Sequence record: PZ452611.1
Direction: 5' to 3' (one strand)
Length of the DNA stretch: 64,000 bases
DNA from: a phage
Part shown: positions 2,488 to 35,041 of the stretch, one piece after another
Numbering within the stretch: the first letter of the stretch is position 1
How the letters are laid out: each line of letters starts with the position of its first letter
Notes under the pieces: generated by a model
The model's input: the letters and a program-made list of their open reading frames with translations, nothing else
Told to the model about the DNA's origin: nothing
The model's database searches: none
Position numbers and translations under genes: made by a program

Positions 2488-4911
2488 ATGAGCATGTGGT
2501 CTTTCGATTTTGAGTCATCCGGTTTGCTGGAAGACCCAGATCTTTATTATCACTGCGGCCTGTTTAAAGAGTTGAATAAGAACCGTTTTATGCTGTTCCT
2601 TCCTCTGAATGACCGCACACACTACTCCGAGGAGGATATAGAGAAGGCTAAGAACTTTATTCTGGCAAAGAAAACTCTTTATAAGGATTTTGAAGTTCGC
2701 ATAGCAGATTTTTCAGAGTTGGAAGGTTGGCTTACAGGCAATTCTGACTGGTCACCCACAGCTTTGAACTGCCACAACTGCTACAGCTACGACTTTATGC
2801 TGATGGAGAGATTGTCCGGTATTCATTTTGATATGTTCCGTGATCCTAAGTGCATGGGGACTATCAACGACCACCAGGTTAATCTGTTTGATACGTTGGC
2901 GATGAGCCGAATCTTGTGGCCTGATCGCCCTTTACCAAAAGGTTGTCCGGACTCTGTATTCAACCCGGTTACTAAGAAAATGCAGCCTGTTGGTCCTCAC
3001 GGCCTTATGGCATGGGGCTACGCCCTTGGTAACCAGAAAGTTCAAATTGATGACTGGCGCGATCTTCCGTTGTGGAAGTATGTGGATCGTGTATTCGAGG
3101 ACGTTATCATCCAGGAGCTGCTCTGGAAAGAGCTGGTAGCGGAATCAAAAGGTGTATTCTACGGCAAATCTGACATGCAGAACTTTATGTACGATCCAGC
3201 CAAAGAGAAGCCGAAAGGGTTCAAGAAGATCACCTGGAAGAACGCATTACGTCGAGGCATGCTGCAGCACTTCCTGATGGAGCTGCAGGCCCGTCAGGGT
3301 GTATACTTCGACATAGATGGAGCTATTGCTTTACGTGACCGTTGCGATGCGTGGATGAAAGAAATCGCTGATCGTGTTGAACCACAACTACCTTTAAAAG
3401 AGCTGTCAATGTCTCAGCGGCCCAAGTTCCCTGAAAAGCCGTTTAACCAAGACGGGACAATCTCTAATAATGGTTGGAAATGGTTAAAAGATAAGCTTGG
3501 CTATCCTGTAGACATGAGTGCTTTAGAGTTCAAAGCCCCGCCTAAGCGAGCATTTACCTCTACAGGAGATGTCAGCAAGATGGGGATAAAATGGTGTGAA
3601 GAGATGGGCTGCAAAGACCCCGATAAGATGGCTGATTTCTTGAGAGGCTATATTAAGGGCACCTCCACACCACAACCCTTACCTAAAGAGCTGATGGATC
3701 AGGCAATAAGTGATCTGCAGCAGAAGCGAATGCCTGACTGCAAGATACCTATGAAAATCAGCAATCAGGACGACATCAAGCGATACCTAATCAGTGCTGG
3801 TTGGCTCCCAACAATGTGGAGAACTAAAGATGTAACTAAAGACAGCAAGAAGAAAGCTTTACCTGATGCAGATGTTGATGCACGAGTATATGCATATATG
3901 GACGAGCTTTTGGAGTCAGAGTATTGTGACCTAATTATCAACTTCTGGAACAAAACTGATGCTAAGTTCCAGACAACCGTGCACAAGTTCCGAAGCTTTC
4001 CTAACTCCGAAAGGATTAAAAAGGAAGTATTCGGGAAAATACGTAGAAAAGCCAGGGCACTTATTACTTCTCCGCAACTGAAAGATACGTTTGGACACCT
4101 GTGTCCGAATCTTGAAAAATTGAACGGAGAGATGGCTAAAGATATCGTCTTGTGGTTATCATTGCGAAACCGCAGATCGGTCCTTGATCCAATCAAGGAG
4201 GATAAGGTTGATACTGGTCTTCTTAATCACCCACGTTTGAAGATTGACCATAAGCTTCCTGCTAAAAGCTCTGGATTAACAAACACTTCCAGACAGAAAC
4301 ACAGTATTTGTGCAAACATGCCTAAACCATCTCCTAAAGTGGTTATGGGTAAAGAGATGCGTAGTCTGTGGGGTGTTCCTCCGGGATACTTTGAGATCGG
4401 TATTGACGGGTCCAACTTAGAGCAGCTTATCGGGGCTTGGGGTGCCTTTGAGTTCGACAACGGCTTGTATTATGATGTTGTAAGTAACGGAGACGCACAC
4501 CAAAACAATGCTGAGGCATATACAAAAGTAGCAGGCAGAGAGGTGTCCCGTAACGACGGTAAACCTATCACGTATGGGGTTATGTACGGGGCACAAAAAG
4601 ATAAAGTTGCAGATATGCTGGACATCTCCCCAGAGTTGGGACAAAGGGTAATCGATGCACTCTGGGATGCCAACCCAGGTCTTAAGGGGCGCAAAGAGGA
4701 TCTGGAGAAATTCTGGGAAGCAACAGGTAAGAAGTTTATCTACTCTTTTGATGGTCATGCTATCTGGACCCGATCTAAACACTCTTTACTTAATGCATAC
4801 CAACAAAATGGCGGTGCATCGTTGTGTGACTTAGTTGGAATACTCATGCACCACCAGATGGTGAAGCGTGGGTGGTACGATGAAGGTGTTCGTCGTATTA
4901 TTTATTACCAT
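2488..4911 (+). CDS. DNA polymerase, family A (T7 gp5-like), exon 1: 3'-5' exo domain plus polymerase motifs A and B
   Basis: RBS AAGGAGA; exo I motif FDFESSG; motif A EIGIDGSNLEQL...FEFDNG (T7 GADASGLELR...FDNG); motif B ITYGVMYGAQ; frame stops right after His of motif C (IIYYH-K-stop). Confidence 0.85.
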
Positions 4912-24929: not shown

Positions 24930-25349
24930 ATGAACATTAAATCTAATAATCCGGCATATAGCTTTGATAACGCTTTTTGTCACGGTCCGGCGGCGAAAGG
25001 ATTCGAAATCGATGGTAAACTAATTATTGTCAATGTTGACGGGGAAGAGGTTGCAGTATATCCGGTGGCAGACGTTAAAAGCCGTTTGCAATGCCGCATG
25101 GATGTTACCGCCTACCAGCTTGATCCGGTCCGCATAGTTGCCCTGGTCCTGGAGGAAGAGATCAAAGCCATGCATCATAGCAATAAGTTTATCGGTGACG
25201 CGCAAGATAATATGAAGGTATGCCGCTATAAAGTTAATGAAGTGCTTAAAGAATACGGCTTCAAAGATCTGATGATCAAGCGTGATGAAAAATTCCGTTA
25301 TCGTAACGACCTGGCAAATCGAATCTATGAAATATACGAATCATTATAA
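24930..25349 (+). CDS. hypothetical protein
   Basis: promoter 24852-24880; RBS AAGAGG; last plus-strand gene, followed by terminator. Confidence 0.5.
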   Translation: MNIKSNNPAYSFDNAFCHGPAAKGFEIDGKLIIVNVDGEEVAVYPVADVKSRLQCRMDVTAYQLDPVRIVALVLEEEIKAMHHSNKFIGDAQDNMKVCRYKVNEVLKEYGFKDLMIKRDEKFRYRNDLANRIYEIYESL

Positions 25350-25367
25350 TTTCTTAACTAAACTATC

Positions 25368-25395
25368 AGGGGCTTTAAAAGGCCCCTTTCTTTTG
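25368..25395 (+). terminator. rho-independent terminator ending plus-strand arm
   Basis: AGGGGC-tttaaaag-GCCCCT then TTCTTTTG. Confidence 0.55.
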
Positions 25396-26347
25396 TCTGT
25401 ATTTCTCCTACCACAAACGGCCCAGCCTGGCAAGTGGAATAATTGACTAGCCAGCAATTACCAACACTGTACAAATATACATATAAAATAACTATTGCAT
25501 AATCTTTCATCTTGTGGTAGCAGGGCCATTTTTACACGTTTTCCTTCCAAAATTGCACGTAATGCAGCTATTGCATAAAATTTAACCTGATGCACATCTT
25601 CAATAGCTTGTCAACAACTAAAAATCTTTATAAGTCATACACTTACATAACCACAAAAGCGTGTTCTACGTGAAAAATCGAGTATAACTATAGCCGCCAG
25701 ATCTCAGAATTTACGTACGCTCACCATTCTATAGTCTGCTAAGTATTTATTCCAACCATAGAATAACAGAATAGTCAATACCTGCATAAAATAATTATTC
25801 GTGTAAACTGCATAACATAAATCAGCCGGGGTGTCAACATTTTTCGTAAACGGCTCGAAATTATCACTGTGAGCTATCATAAACAGAGAAATCTTTAGTC
25901 GTCTAATGTTTACTGTACGTTACTATACTAACTGGAATCATTAGATGACTAATAAAAAGATAAGAAATCATTAACAATGCAATTGTTTTATTCATAACAA
26001 TAAGGCAACTATGCAAACGAATGGCATGGCGCGACGGAGTCGCGACATAATATAAAAGCAGTAACCATCACCCCCGTGATAGTTTGTCTGCAAACTATTA
26101 ATCAGATCATAGTTGCCTTGTATTTAGTTAATCATGACATAAACTCAGGCATAGCCTTCGTCTCGAGGATGTTAACAAGCAAGGCAACTATAGATCTTCT
26201 AATAGTTGCCCTGCTTTTATATTATGTCATAGAAACACCCGAAGGGGTGACCAAAGGTCACCTGGCATAGCCAGTGAAATATTGTAAACAAGTTAATTAT
26301 TATCATGCAAACGAATGGCATGGCTTATCATCTCTGTGTAAATAGTT

Positions 26348-26511
26348 TGTTTGTAAACAGTTTATACGTGAACAGTTAGCTGTGTAAACTATCAGGCATG
26401 TAAGCTATTGAGCATGTAAACAGTAAAGGTCGTGAACAGTAAGCGAGCGAATAGTAATGGCGTGAACAATGACAGCGTAAACAGTCAGGCATGTCAATTA
26501 TGTTCAGTGTG
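26348..26511. repeat. tandem array of 11 units, 15-16 bp period, consensus n6-GTRAACAGT (iteron-like)
   Basis: 9-mers start at 26348, 26363, 26378, 26394, 26410, 26426, 26442, 26457, 26472, 26487, 26503. Confidence 0.7.
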
Positions 26512-27953
26512 TCACCATTATGTCATATTGTGTCAGACAAGTTTTTCTCCTCTTTGTCAAGTGCTGCATGAAAAATTTACAATCTGGTATGGTAGCATTT
26601 TTGCGGCCCTGTTTACATTCAGTACTGTATGTATAAGCCTTGTTGTGTGGGCGCTTAGACGTCTAGACGGTTGGAAGTCTGCAGGTCAATATCTAATCTA
26701 TTGGTTGCTAACTATATCCCACACAAATAGTAAGAAATGCAATTGTTATATGCGTAAACTGTAACTCATGTTATCAATCCCTGTATGGATCGCCAGTGGT
26801 GCGCATAATAGGTATTATGTTAAATTGCCAGTAATGATAACTATTCTCACAGTGATAGGTATTCTCATTCAACCCCACAAGATAGGTTGCAAATGTTGTG
26901 CCACTGTGTGAACGGCCTCGCCTATTAATTTGCCTCACTGCCTCGATATTTGAGAATTATTATAAGAATGAGAAGTATTCCCATTTCGTCCGCCTGGCAG
27001 CACTCCTGTAGGTCAGGTCAAAATCGGGAGAGAACTGGACCTGTTCAGATATTTCTGGCTGGCTCTTCAGGTCTGTGTGGGAAAAGCCGACCCCTCCGGC
27101 GGCGGGGAGGGGGTCAATTAAAAAATTTACGGGGCATATGAAGCGCTCTTCAGGTAAGGCATGTATTATGGGATGAAACCCTCTTCAGGAAATGATATTT
27201 GTGGGTGTGATATTTGCTGGAAAGCTAGATATGACTGGACTCCTGGCGGGGCAGGGGTAGTACAGACAGGGGAAATATGGGGGATGTAGTTGGGTAAATT
27301 GATCAGGCAGGTAGAGTATGGAATATGTTACGAGTATGTTAAATATGGAGGGTGAATATCTGCAGGATTTGTGTGTAAAATCAAAGACTTAAGTGGTGTT
27401 GTGGTATTTTCTATAAATAATTCAAGTTTAATAGGTGATATTTGTCCCTATCCACTTTGTGTGGTAAACAGATTCAGATGAGATTGGTTTACGAGTGTAT
27501 ACATAATATACAAATTAAAGATACAAGAAACCCCCCTCCCCCTTCGGCTACCATTCACCTTTTCCTCTGACTGGTACTTAAACACTTATTCAGACTCTTC
27601 AGGTTATCACCCATATATCATATGGCAGTGACTGGTGTCCTCCGGCCCCTCTTTCGTCACCCGTCCGCTTCGCCATGCTAATGCCATAGCCAATGGTTCG
27701 GTTGTTCACCCTGTTCACTCAGGTGTATCTCCATACCCCTTCAAACCGAAGAGAACAGAAAACCCGAATTACTCGGTAAAAGAAAAGAGAAGAACTTAAT
27801 TTTATCAGGATAAGCAAGAATGTCAAGGCATGACTGCTCACTAAACAAGCAAACAGTCATGTGTGGGAGGTAAGTGATTGTGGTGGTAGGAAATTTAGTT
27901 GAAAGATGTGTTATAGGTGCTCCCAGCACTTTAGCCGGGTAGCTAATTGTGTG

Positions 27954-31956: not shown

Positions 31957-32352
31957 TTACTGAAACAGTGCAGATAAATTACCTTCTGGTGGGAACTTAT
32001 CTGCCAAAAACGGTGTTAGCACAGTAGCCTTCTGAAGATCTGGGGTCCACTCGTTGTTCAGAACATCCCAGTAGTACGCAATGTTGCTGTGTGGGTGCCG
32101 CATTACGAACTTTTTCCCTTCGTAGTCATCTGAAACCTCTACAGAAGAAATAACAACAGAATCTTCAAGGGTTTCTTCATAGAAAGATCCGCCTTCAAAT
32201 TTCCAACGAGATGCAAGAGCCCCTGCCTTGAACGCTGCAGATAACGGACTGTCGGCAAGAACATACATTTCTTGCACTCTGTCGCTGCGATCTTTGCTTC
32301 TTACGTTGTACACAGTATCTGAGCTATACTCAACACGGTATAGGCTTACCAT
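31957..32352 (-). CDS. hypothetical protein (paralogue of 34159-34557)
   Basis: shares HP.S...YW....N.WTP......PL motif with 34159-34557. Confidence 0.45.
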   Translation of the reverse strand: MVSLYRVEYSSDTVYNVRSKDRSDRVQEMYVLADSPLSAAFKAGALASRWKFEGGSFYEETLEDSVVISSVEVSDDYEGKKFVMRHPHSNIAYYWDVLNNEWTPDLQKATVLTPFLADKFPPEGNLSALFQ

Positions 32353-32684
32353 TACCGCACCTCCTCAATAACTTCCACATCTGAACCCACCACAAATGCA
32401 AAAGGACAGGTTTCATGAAAGACATCCGGATCGCCGCCAAGCTTGCTAACAATTTCTCCACCACTAATAAACACAAGCTCACCGATATTCATCAGATTGC
32501 TGAAATAGTATCCATAATGATTAAAGAATGCAGCAGGGTCAGGTAGACTAGTAGCCTCAAGTTCTACATCGGTTGAGATTACTTTCTTATCATAACCTCT
32601 CGCCTTCTGAGATGCAAGATCTGCAGAATCTTCAGGCGACCGGAGATGCACAGGAATTGTTTCACCAATAAAGCGTACTTTCAT
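32352..32684 (-). CDS. hypothetical protein
   Basis: ATG (MKVRFIGE); track ORF trimmed. Confidence 0.35.
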   Translation of the reverse strand: MKVRFIGETIPVHLRSPEDSADLASQKARGYDKKVISTDVELEATSLPDPAAFFNHYGYYFSNLMNIGELVFISGGEIVSKLGGDPDVFHETCPFAFVVGSDVEVIEEVR

Positions 32685-32688
32685 ATTA

Positions 32689-32952
32689 TCACCCAACAAC
32701 CATAGCTTCAAAAGGGGTCATGAACGAATAAACGGCATCATCATCTGCTTCAGGGAATGCTCCCAAAGACTTCATGTCCGAGCCCTTGACAAATACAAGG
32801 TTTTGATCAAAAGCTTCTTGGGGGTCAATCCGATACATATTTCGTAGAATATCACCTACCTCTTCATCAAGAGGTGAGTATGCTGTGCACGTTTTTCCGA
32901 TCAAGCTTTGAGAATCAGGGTATCCACCTGAAGTTTTAAAATAAACAATCAT
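32689..32952 (-). CDS. hypothetical protein
   Basis: ORF. Confidence 0.35.
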   Translation of the reverse strand: MIVYFKTSGGYPDSQSLIGKTCTAYSPLDEEVGDILRNMYRIDPQEAFDQNLVFVKGSDMKSLGAFPEADDDAVYSFMTPFEAMVVG

Positions 32953-33043
32953 ATAGTATCACCTCTGGTAAGAGATTGGGATTCCTTTCCCACAAATAAT
33001 TACAAATCTTCCTTATCGAGGAAGTATGCTAATCCAAGCAGGA

Positions 33044-33313
33044 TTATTCCTCTACAATCTCATACACATCAGGAGTTACAATCAACTCTTCTCCGTTACC
33101 CGGTGCAACAAACACCACCAAACCTTCAGGTGTGTGCTTTTTAGCCATCTCGATAACATCTTCGCGCAGAGCTGGCTCCATCAGATCAAAACCTTCACCC
33201 AGGGCATCACGAACCACCTTCATATAGTCCACTGGTTGTGCTTCAACAATCATGCCTTCAACCAGTCCACAGTTTTTGTCTGCCAGCTCAGTTTTGAATA
33301 ATTTAATTTTCAT
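33044..33313 (-). CDS. hypothetical protein
   Basis: ORF. Confidence 0.4.
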   Translation of the reverse strand: MKIKLFKTELADKNCGLVEGMIVEAQPVDYMKVVRDALGEGFDLMEPALREDVIEMAKKHTPEGLVVFVAPGNGEELIVTPDVYEIVEE

Positions 33314-33450
33314 TTAGAGGTCTCCTCAATTATTTGATATTAATAGCCGTAACCTAACACATTAACTACAATTGCGATTGCAAACATAATTTCAAAGCAT
33401 GCAATCTCTACATTTGGGACTAATTTCTTAATCACACCCATTGTAGCACC

Positions 33451-33768
33451 TCATTCTCCAAAGTCAATCTTTACTTTGCCTTTCCCCTTACCTTTCTTTC
33501 CACCACATTTAGCCAGCTGACGTGCTGCAACATCTACCATACGGTCAGTTGCCTCGTAAGCATCACTGCCTTTAGCTTTGGCAATAACTTCTTTTCCAGA
33601 ATTGTCAAAAATGAACGCCATAACTTCCTGGTGATCATTTTCAACTTTTACACTCACACGTGCATAGTTGGCAGAGGGGTGCAAACGCTCCAGCTTAGAC
33701 ATTTTGTGGGAAATGAAAGACACCATACCTTCAGTGATTTCTACGTTGCCAGTGATTTCAATTTGCAT
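33451..33768 (-). CDS. hpf: ribosome hibernation promoting factor / RaiA (YfiA) family homologue
   Basis: MQIEITGNVEITEGM...KLERL...VKVEN...GKEVIAKAKGSDAYEATDRMVDVAARQLAK aligns along its length with E. coli HPF (MQLNITGNNVEITEA...KLEQY...KVEK...GGEIHASAEGQDMYAAIDGLIDKLARQLTK); own promoter 33816-33844 and 5'-UTR hairpin. Confidence 0.7.
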   Translation of the reverse strand: MQIEITGNVEITEGMVSFISHKMSKLERLHPSANYARVSVKVENDHQEVMAFIFDNSGKEVIAKAKGSDAYEATDRMVDVAARQLAKCGGKKGKGKGKVKIDFGE

Positions 33769-33815
33769 AACGTGTTCCTTTTAAAGAAGAGGGAACCAAA
33801 CCCTCTTTGAAAACA

Positions 33816-33844
33816 ATGATACTAAATCTGAAGCGTTGTGTCAA
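33816..33844 (-). promoter_or_regulatory. sigma70-like promoter upstream of hpf-like gene
   Basis: minus strand TTGACA-17-TATCAT, then hairpin AAAGAGGG...CCCTCTTT and RBS. Confidence 0.5.
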
Positions 33845-33850
33845 CAGTTT

Positions 33851-34141
33851 TTACAGCTTGTTGTCGATAGTTTTTAAAATATCTACAGCAAGATCTGCCA
33901 TTTTTCGAACATACTCTGCAAACTCAACAGGATCCTTGATCAAAGAATTCACAGGGTCGTACCCTAGAGCGTTCAAAATGGCTGCAGCATCTACAACCTT
34001 CTCATCATTTGCGAAGATCTCTCCGTCAAACTTGTAGGTCCATTTTGAGTCAACCTTAGCAGAGCAGGGTTTGTCCATGCTTGTTACACCATCGTCTTTA
34101 AACTCTCCTGCGTTATCAATATTCAGAACTAAATCCATCAT
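33851..34141 (-). CDS. hypothetical protein
   Basis: ORF. Confidence 0.4.
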   Translation of the reverse strand: MMDLVLNIDNAGEFKDDGVTSMDKPCSAKVDSKWTYKFDGEIFANDEKVVDAAAILNALGYDPVNSLIKDPVEFAEYVRKMADLAVDILKTIDNKL

Positions 34142-34158
34142 AGTGGTACCTCACTGTT

Positions 34159-34557
34159 TCAGTTTAGCTTTTCTTCAACAACCCCATAGCTTGGGACAGA
34201 ATCAAGAGCTTTCTGGTTTAAAAGTGGTGTAGCAGAATCTGCAAACGGTGTCCAAGTTTTTGTTCTGGAATTCCAGTAATGCTTCACTCTGGAATCTGGA
34301 TGCACTATAACAAAAACTTTTTCACTTGTCAACACATTAATTTCTTCTACACCCTTGCTGATAATTTCTCCGTCATAGCCCCCAGTCTGGTATCCTTCGT
34401 ACCAGGTTCTTGCATAGGCATAGCCAGCCTGCCAGCATGCAGCCTCCTCCGAGGTGGAGATTACGTAGAAGTCCTTCTCAAATTCCGGAATACGCCCTTG
34501 CTTTACGCTCCAAGCTCCGCGAATTTTCATTGTAACTTTGAACAGTTTATTTTTCAC
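34159..34557 (-). CDS. hypothetical protein (paralogue of 31957-32352)
   Basis: sequence similarity to 31957-32352. Confidence 0.45.
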   Translation of the reverse strand: MKNKLFKVTMKIRGAWSVKQGRIPEFEKDFYVISTSEEAACWQAGYAYARTWYEGYQTGGYDGEIISKGVEEINVLTSEKVFVIVHPDSRVKHYWNSRTKTWTPFADSATPLLNQKALDSVPSYGVVEEKLN

Positions 34558-34569
34558 AACGGTTACCCA

Positions 34570-34824
34570 TCACAGCTCTGCAATATCTGCATCTGACCCT
34601 ACCCCAAAGGCATAATAGGACTCTTCCCCGAAATAATATTCAGGTGCACCAGCGGTGATCAGGTCTGATCCTAAGATAAACACCACGTTGTGGCCTACAT
34701 AACTGTGATGTTGCCGCACAGGATCATCCCACGGCAACCCTTCAAAGTATACCGCAGGAACGACCTTTCCCTTCAGGAAGGATTGTCCCAAGTAGACGTT
34801 AGAATCAAGAATTTTAACCTTCAT
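34570..34824 (-). CDS. hypothetical protein (MKVK.LD family paralogue)
   Basis: MKVKILDSNVYLGQ...DLITAGAPE shared with 34814-35041 and 38469-38702. Confidence 0.45.
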   Translation of the reverse strand: MKVKILDSNVYLGQSFLKGKVVPAVYFEGLPWDDPVRQHHSYVGHNVVFILGSDLITAGAPEYYFGEESYYAFGVGSDADIAEL

Positions 34825-35041
34825 GATCGTCCTCCACTACCTCTACATCCTCGCCTAGGGCAAAGTTGTAGGTCCACTGACTGTCAAAGCAGTCCTGAGG
34901 TGCACCAGCGGCAATAAGATCTGCTCCTTTTATTTTTAAAAGGTCAGGGTAATCTTCGTTAGGGACAGCAGTAAACACTTTTCCTACTAAAGGCTCCTGA
35001 CCAATATAGAAGCTTGAATCTAAAACTTTAACTTTCATCAA
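34814..35041 (-). CDS. hypothetical protein (MKVK.LD family paralogue)
   Basis: MKVKVLDSSFYIGQ...DLIAAGAPQ. Confidence 0.45.
   Translation of the reverse strand: MMKVKVLDSSFYIGQEPLVGKVFTAVPNEDYPDLLKIKGADLIAAGAPQDCFDSQWTYNFALGEDVEVVEDDHEG

Follow-up and report, generated by a model that had tools for sequence, protein, structure and literature searches.

The minus-strand open reading frame at positions 33451-33768 of the window (the whole stretch of 64,000 nucleotides of phage DNA that was analysed, record PZ452611.1) encodes a protein that is, practically beyond doubt, a member of the HPF/RaiA family. The first-pass annotation of this DNA had described a phage-encoded homologue of this family with its own promoter, and in this it was correct, as judged from profile HMMs, an AlphaFold model and the annotated sigma70-type promoter P144. 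The role that we favour for the protein, with a probability of about one half, is that it binds and preserves vacant host ribosomes, much as a short HPF or RaiA does. The GenBank deposit of phage rV5 in 2006 already contains the gene with its promoter and an assignment to the family, and the protein has already been highlighted and tested by Mizuno et al. 2019 (PMC6375957). The coding sequence and its distinctive 3' part are the following.

33451..33768, minus strand: coding sequence of 105 codons plus stop, a member of the Ribosomal_S30AE family of short-HPF type, based on the open reading frame, 100% identity to rV5, HMMs, AF2/Foldseek and dN/dS.

33454..33504, minus strand: codons 89-105, the Lys/Gly-rich C-terminal tail GGKKGKGKGKVKIDFGE, based on the model, the pI and the relatives.

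Over 2.5 kb that include the gene, the DNA is 100% identical, in reverse orientation, to Escherichia phage V5 (rV5; DQ832317.1 / NC_011041.1), a virulent coliphage of the genus Vequintavirus in the Vequintavirinae. The frame corresponds to rV5 ORF144 (gene 144, protein ABI79209); it runs from ATG to TGA exactly between the positions given for the 105-residue product in the first-pass annotation, and the residues quoted there match. The product has carried several names: GenBank DQ832317 calls it 'sigma 54 modulation factor', likening it to the probable sigma(54) modulation protein P17161 of Klebsiella oxytoca, RefSeq calls it 'ribosome-associated translation inhibitor RaiA', and related genomes use 'hpf', 'ribosome hibernation factor' and similar labels. 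In several relatives the ORF144 homologue bears the wrong product name 'ATP-dependent protease La type I', and in APCEc02 and nomo 'sigma 54 modulation factor' sits on the unrelated homologue of ORF146, two ORFs downstream; annotation errors touch records OR062525, OR062530, MT884008-MT884010, KR698074 and MN850578.

The rV5 genome was described by Kropinski et al. 2013 (PMC3606486), who reported 33 sigma70-type promoters and a block of 88 mostly small ORFs (92269-121323) that includes ORF144. In five new rV5-like phages, hpf was noted as an auxiliary gene by Mathieu et al. 2020 (PMC6969025). A literature search on Vequintavirus hibernation and on rV5 'sigma 54 modulation' yielded nothing beyond Mizuno 2019 and Mathieu 2020, and the search found no Vequintavirus transcriptome.

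Profile searches place the protein clearly in the family. Pfam PF02482 (Ribosomal_S30AE) matched residues 3-88 over 83 of its 88 profile positions with 48.3 bits (gathering threshold 23.7; E 1.8e-12), and TIGR00741 (HPF/YfiA family) scored 45.9 bits against a cut-off of 40.9, so that the HMM search proposed in the first-pass annotation places both models above their curated cut-offs. The alignment with HPF that it had claimed along the whole length is likewise borne out: the nearest solved structures by sequence are those of E. coli HPF (2rql, 4v8h and 6h4n; E ~5e-12, and 5e-12 for 2rql), aligned over residues 1-89, and the identity to E. coli HPF is 43%. Identity to E. coli RaiA is 25%. Neither of the two equivalog models was reached, with 55.8 bits against a cut-off of 125 for NCBIfam NF007780 (enterobacterial HPF) and 17.6 bits against a cut-off of 158 for NF007654 (RaiA/YfiA). 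Judged by these sequence scores (55.8 versus 17.6 bits), the protein is HPF-like rather than RaiA-like. Given the 25% identity and the 17.6 bits against 158, the RefSeq name 'RaiA' is a family-level label that carries no evidence of orthology. Long HPF of the Gram-positive type, recognised by a second, C-terminal dimerisation domain and by ~180-190 aa in total, is excluded because the protein has no second domain: it has 105 residues and a single Pfam domain, and its residues 89-105 are disordered.

The predicted structure agrees with the profiles. The AF2 model has a mean pLDDT of 85.9, with elements E2-7, H13-29, E33-43, E46-55, E60-67 and H70-89. When it was compared with the PDB by Foldseek, 37 matches were obtained at E ≤ 1e-3, all of them ribosome factors of the HPF/RaiA/pY family, RafH and MPY included. 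The best match is V. cholerae HPF (4hei; rmsd 1.0 Å, TM 0.93), and E. coli HPF as found in the 100S ribosome (6h4n chain x) gives an rmsd of 1.1 Å; the comparison of a predicted structure with HPF, also proposed at first pass, thus ended in superposition at 1.0-1.1 Å. Ranks 38-49, which come after the HPF family, are occupied by double-stranded-RNA-binding domains.

The short Lys/Gly-rich tail pointed out in the first-pass annotation is present and exceeds that of E. coli HPF by 10 residues. The AlphaFold model predicts it to be disordered, with pLDDT <50 at residues 93-100 and no secondary structure, and it lifts the pI from 5.9 (core) to 8.7. The DNA that encodes it is an indel-prone G/A-rich run, AAGAAAGGTAAGGGGAAAGGCAAAG, in which the deposited sequences of APCEc02 and Murica carry indels of +1 and -1, respectively; their tails end early and are shorter, yet still basic. 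These indels may be either real variation or homopolymer sequencing error. The clade with 64% identity has a different basic tail, and the tail is less constrained than the core.

In terms of distribution, tblastn with the rV5 protein matched 119 of 50,697 phage records, all at ≥94% identity except for one mis-filed Salmonella genome contig, which leaves ~118 true records. The gene is present in 119 of the 121 phage records that hold the surrounding DNA, and from these numbers it is a core gene of one genus, Vequintavirus. With E. coli HPF as the query, 130 records matched, ~118 of which are the same Vequintavirus set; the remainder are the Xanthomonas jumbo phage XaC1 and fragments from Listeria, Enterococcus and faecal samples. 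A scan of IMG/VR with one peptide pattern, which has low sensitivity, returned two contigs, both rV5-like. Within PHROGs, the protein falls in a family of its own, phrog_12469 ('unknown function', E 7.5e-71), and it matches a separate phage HPF family, phrog_8990, at E 1.5e-6. A word-indexed protein search returned near-identical proteins and one 64% relative only, and the only further sequences from an exhaustive HMMER scan (1.84 billion representatives) were bacterial HPFs of ≤45% identity, which leaves the phage clade isolated. The second phage clade (P0004) carries an HPF that is 64% identical, on contigs of 125-137 kb and in the same gene neighbourhood. Outside the genus Vequintavirus, to which HPF in phages is essentially confined, only a few unrelated phages carry one.

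Two further observations concern the records themselves. One contig, L002 (Logan ERR6997038; 125.8 kb), represents an rV5-like clade that is absent from the searched phage collection. Eighteen unannotated 'Campylobacter phage' records (within MG065635-MG065690; listed host C. jejuni) share 97-98% identity with rV5 in this region, and look like mislabelled E. coli vequintaviruses or contaminants of Campylobacter phage stocks.

Over codons 1-88 in seven rV5-like genomes, dN/dS is 0.04-0.14, with dS up to 0.75, and in comparison with the 64% clade dN is 0.26, at saturation of the synonymous sites. The low dN/dS, together with the low dN where synonymous sites are saturated, indicates that the gene is maintained by selection.

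Residue conservation was assessed by aligning the ORF144 protein with 19 bacterial homologues from the exhaustive HMMER scan. The rV5 protein is identical at all five columns that are ≥90% conserved among the bacterial sequences, and at 18 of the 26 that are ≥70% conserved. Residues T12, K22, G58, A63, D69, Y71, D75, D79, R83 and K87 are common to rV5 and the 64% relative, and K25 and R28 are likewise kept in the rV5 protein. According to a cryo-EM study of HPF-bound ribosomes (bioRxiv 10.1101/2025.10.07.680626), D75 and R83 are conserved rRNA contacts, and positions 80, 83, 87, 89, 91 and 93 form the basic face of helix alpha2. On this face, rV5 keeps R83 and K87 but has V for K80 and G for K89, and its lysines 91, 92, 94, 96, 98 and 100 fall in the predicted disordered tail. 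At the positions of Y30, T53 and H62 of E. coli HPF, the rV5 protein has L, F and I. Changes at rRNA-contact positions occur in both phage clades (K80 to V/T, K89 to G/S, Y30 to L and T53 to F/R), and the bacterially conserved E50, M70, A72 and I74 are altered in both as well. Given that the departures at E50, M70, A72, I74, K80 and K89 are common to both clades, they are best taken as old, phage-lineage-specific features.

Among known systems, the protein most invites comparison with gammaproteobacterial short HPF (YhbH; 2rql, 6h4n chain x, 4hei), which has the same single S30AE domain in ~95-105 aa and the same N-terminus, MQ(I/L)xITG(N)NVEIT; to the 43% identity with the E. coli protein are added the shared K22/K25, D69, Y71, D75, D79, R83 and K87. 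The differences are that the rV5 gene lies in a virulent phage, behind a sigma70-type promoter and outside an rpoN operon, that K80, K89, Y30 and T53 are replaced, that a longer, disordered Lys/Gly tail stands in place of the helical basic C-terminus KHKDKLKQH of E. coli HPF, and that the rV5 protein was neither recovered with salt-washed ribosomes nor seen to affect 100S (PMC6375957). An extra Asn (ITGNNVEIT), as E. coli HPF has it, occurs in Murica, nomo and V18. E. coli RaiA (YfiA / protein Y) shares family and fold and would share the ribosomal site, and both proteins extend past the domain at the C-terminus, although the RaiA tail is acidic and that of rV5 basic. Should the rV5 protein act on 70S by itself, an outcome similar to that of RaiA would be expected. 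Proteins with an S30AE domain also occur in other large virulent phages, namely Cronobacter phage GAP32, Xanthomonas XaC1 and the members of phrog_8990, but these are separate and much more distant acquisitions, and they were unmatched by the rV5 query in tblastn at E 1e-3. Phage bS21 and bL12 are likewise captured translation-machinery genes; unlike rV5 HPF, they were incorporated into E. coli ribosomes (PMC6375957).

Upstream and downstream of the gene, the following features were recorded.

33816..33844, minus strand: predicted sigma70-type promoter P144 (TTGACA, 17 nt, TATCAT), a match at 11/12 positions, annotated in DQ832317.

~33788..33806 (33787..33807 with an extra A-U pair), minus strand: hairpin AGAGGG / 7-nt loop / CCCUCU, from the minimum-free-energy fold.

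33775..33780, minus strand: ribosome-binding site AAGGAA, 6 nt upstream of the ATG, read from the sequence and conserved in rV5-like phages.

33340..33441, minus strand: 33-aa hydrophobic ORF, rV5 ORF145, from the ORF list and present as a CDS in rV5 and relatives.

The consensus promoter that the first-pass annotation had placed at 33816-33844 is the annotated P144, whose feature at DQ832317 98121-98149 maps exactly to this interval. It is among the two best sites found by a promoter scan of 4 kb, and its -35 box starts 7 nt beyond the upstream gene's stop codon. The -35 region is unchanged in seven rV5-like phages, which differ by up to 0.5-0.7 at synonymous sites, and is also kept in L002, where HPF is only 64% identical. 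The extended -35 box, AAACTGTTGACA, occurs six times in the window versus 0.71 expected. From its sequence and conservation, P144 is a credible promoter. Two other promoter-like elements were observed in the vicinity of HPF genes: a site at 33440-33467 (minus strand; TTGACT, 16 nt, TACAAT, TG extension, 10/12), within the last HPF codons and just upstream of ORF145, and, in L002, a further AAACTGTTTACA box at 4312-4360, directly after the HPF stop codon.

The hairpin in the 5'-UTR, also claimed at first pass, does appear in the minimum-free-energy fold, beginning ~2-3 nt past the predicted transcription start, yet it is unremarkable: the 58-nt leader folds no better than shuffles (z = -0.49), and the 3' arm is absent in L002. 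These same two observations make a conserved regulatory leader a weak interpretation. The rV5-like phages share the stem and differ in the loop, and L002 lacks the rV5 ribosome-binding site along with the 3' arm, its GAGGG serving as the ribosome-binding site. An Rfam scan of 32500-35000 at E ≤ 1, aimed at leader RNAs such as the raiA motif, gave no match. The hairpin was also considered as the intrinsic terminator of the upstream operon, and this was rejected, given that it is unflagged by a terminator scan, its T-run is unconserved, and it lies downstream of the promoter.

ORF145 starts 9 nt past the HPF stop codon, is named 'putative membrane protein' in some records and has no Pfam match; its spacing suggests that it is probably co-transcribed with the HPF gene. 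The small genes around HPF are indeed as unassignable as first described, with a Pfam family found for 0 of the 9 flanking ORFs. No tRNA genes were found in the window. Two pairs of paralogues flank or lie near the gene, ORF149 (31957-32352) with ORF142 (34159-34557) at 28% identity (E 3e-11), and ORF141 (34570-34824) with ORF140 (34814-35041) at 40% identity (E 1e-16), all on the minus strand. Farther away, window positions ~25347-27952 (rV5 104013-106618) correspond to 2.6 kb without ORFs according to Kropinski et al. 2013. GTAAAC-type repeats are clustered in this interval, three of them at a spacing of 16 nt (26368-26424); a perfect repeat of 20 nt occurs at 26011 and 26305, and the extended -35 motif is present twice, at 25832 and 26352. 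Replication may start in this interval, or it may hold a cluster of promoters or of non-coding RNAs.

The published test of the protein bears directly on its role. Table 1 of Mizuno et al. 2019 (PMC6375957) lists ABI79209 as a virus-encoded HPF, and in that work the HPF homologues of E. coli phages fall among gammaproteobacterial sequences. ABI79209 was expressed from pBAD24 in E. coli NM522, the cells were harvested at OD600 = 1 (late-exponential), and the ribosomes were pelleted through a 0.5 M NH4Cl sucrose cushion. Peptides of ABI79209 were detected in the crude extract and none in the 70S or 100S fractions, and the level of 100S, to which enterobacterial HPF helps to convert the 90S dimers induced by RMF, showed no discernible change in expressing cells. 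The authors remarked that the absence from ribosomes may be due to the salt wash or to the growth phase, and suggested that viral HPF may compete with the cellular factor and prevent ribosome dimerisation. Expression was continuous from the overnight pre-culture onward, and the cells still reached OD600 = 1 (PMC6375957), which indicates that the protein is not a strong translation poison. This growth argues against the 'ribosome-silencing' activity named in the first-pass annotation, in the sense of a strong silencing role. The ribosome binding that it expected is partly contradicted: the protein was absent from 70S and 100S washed in 0.5 M NH4Cl, and salt and growth phase are the explanations offered by those who performed the test. 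The wash used in the 'high-salt-washed ribosome' preparations of the Wada laboratory reportedly also strips cellular RMF, HPF and YfiA, and washing at high salt is the usual means of removing these factors. Hence, we regard a negative ribosome result obtained with a 0.5 M NH4Cl wash and late-exponential cells as not decisive.

On the reading that the protein binds and preserves vacant ribosomes, a Vequintavirus ancestor would have captured the gene from a gammaproteobacterial host, and the genus has kept it as a core gene. Host RNA polymerase would transcribe gene 144 from P144, inside a block of small genes typical of early functions, and the product would sit on vacant 30S or 70S at the place used by cellular HPF and RaiA, the A/P-site channel of the small subunit. 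Contact with the ribosome would be made via the retained K22, K25, R28, D75, R83 and K87, and the flexible Lys/Gly tail would substitute for the basic C-terminal end of helix alpha2. Given that RMF is not produced in growing cells, the outcome would be RaiA-like, with idle 70S parked and no 100S formed. On the parked 70S, the decoding centre and the 16S 3' end would be shielded from nucleases, and the ribosome pool would be kept intact for phage late protein synthesis, with no host shut-off. [quoted passage not shown] The normal growth of expressing cells to OD600 = 1 fits a factor that occupies vacant ribosomes only. Counting against a ribosome-preserving role are the negative ribosome test, the altered rRNA-contact positions, and the 55.8 bits obtained where the equivalog cut-off is 125.

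The residues of the binding surface would serve equally well a protein that works against hibernation, holding the HPF/RaiA site while its longer basic tail blocks the binding of RMF and the formation of 100S, or displacing host factors, so that phage mRNAs would find ribosomes that can soon be put to use even in slow-growing or stressed hosts. Proposed by Mizuno et al. 2019 (PMC6375957), this hypothesis gains from the 10 additional tail residues relative to E. coli HPF and from the finding that the longer C-terminal tail of RaiA runs towards the RMF site (bioRxiv 10.1101/2025.10.07.680626). We consider it unlikely, given that expressing cells had no discernible change in 100S and stable ribosome binding was unseen (PMC6375957), that the tail sequence is unconserved in the 64% relative and truncated in two deposited isolates, and that the protein resembles HPF far more than RaiA (55.8 versus 17.6 bits). 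The absence from purified ribosomes despite good expression (PMC6375957) speaks instead for an HPF fold that has acquired a new function off the ribosome, where it would bind other phage or host RNA or protein, with the basic tail as a nucleic-acid anchor. The derived changes that both phage clades share at K80, K89, E50, M70, A72 and I74, the isolation of the phage clade (nearest bacterial homologues ≤45% identical among 1.84 billion representatives) and the double-stranded-RNA-binding domains that follow the HPF family as its next structural neighbours point in the same direction. Yet strong purifying selection has preserved the most conserved residues of the family, R83, K87, D75, K22 and the D69/Y71 motif among them, and the negative binding test was made with a 0.5 M NH4Cl wash and late-exponential cells; on balance, a new function away from the ribosome seems an unlikely explanation.

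Far less probable is that the protein acts as a sigma-54 modulation factor, altering RpoN-dependent transcription of the host. In its favour stands the historical name only, copied from Klebsiella ORF95 (P17161) of the rpoN operon, whereas the HPF/RaiA family is now understood to act in ribosome hibernation, each of the 37 significant structural matches is a ribosome-bound protein of the HPF/RaiA/pY family, and the gene's own promoter is of sigma70 type. That the gene is a functionless passenger, a piece of decaying host DNA, might be argued from the frameshifted tails in two deposited genomes and from the lack of a known phenotype, but the selection data, with dN/dS of 0.04-0.14, effectively refute it. 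Moreover, the gene is found in 119 of 121 related genomes, it has stayed intact in a relative so divergent that synonymous sites are saturated, and a promoter and a ribosome-binding site of its own are conserved with it.

Besides the preservation of vacant ribosomes, which remains our preferred reading, the altered alpha2 surface and the floppy poly-Lys/Gly tail common to both phage clades raise the idea of a Vequintavirus HPF that has been re-tuned, either into a weak-binding, fast-exchanging shield against host nucleases or ribosome-targeting abortive-infection toxins, or into a decoy that excludes RMF, HPF and RaiA. We hold this to be quite doubtful. If it were true, the protein would be a phage counter-measure against host ribosome hibernation or destruction and not a hibernation factor of the cellular type, and, as a shield, it would cover the decoding centre and the 3' end of 16S rRNA during infection.

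Vequintaviruses are virulent coliphages, some of which are used in phage-therapy and biocontrol collections, and a hibernation-factor homologue is kept throughout the genus. Its role in infection bears on whether phages manage the idle-ribosome pool of their hosts.
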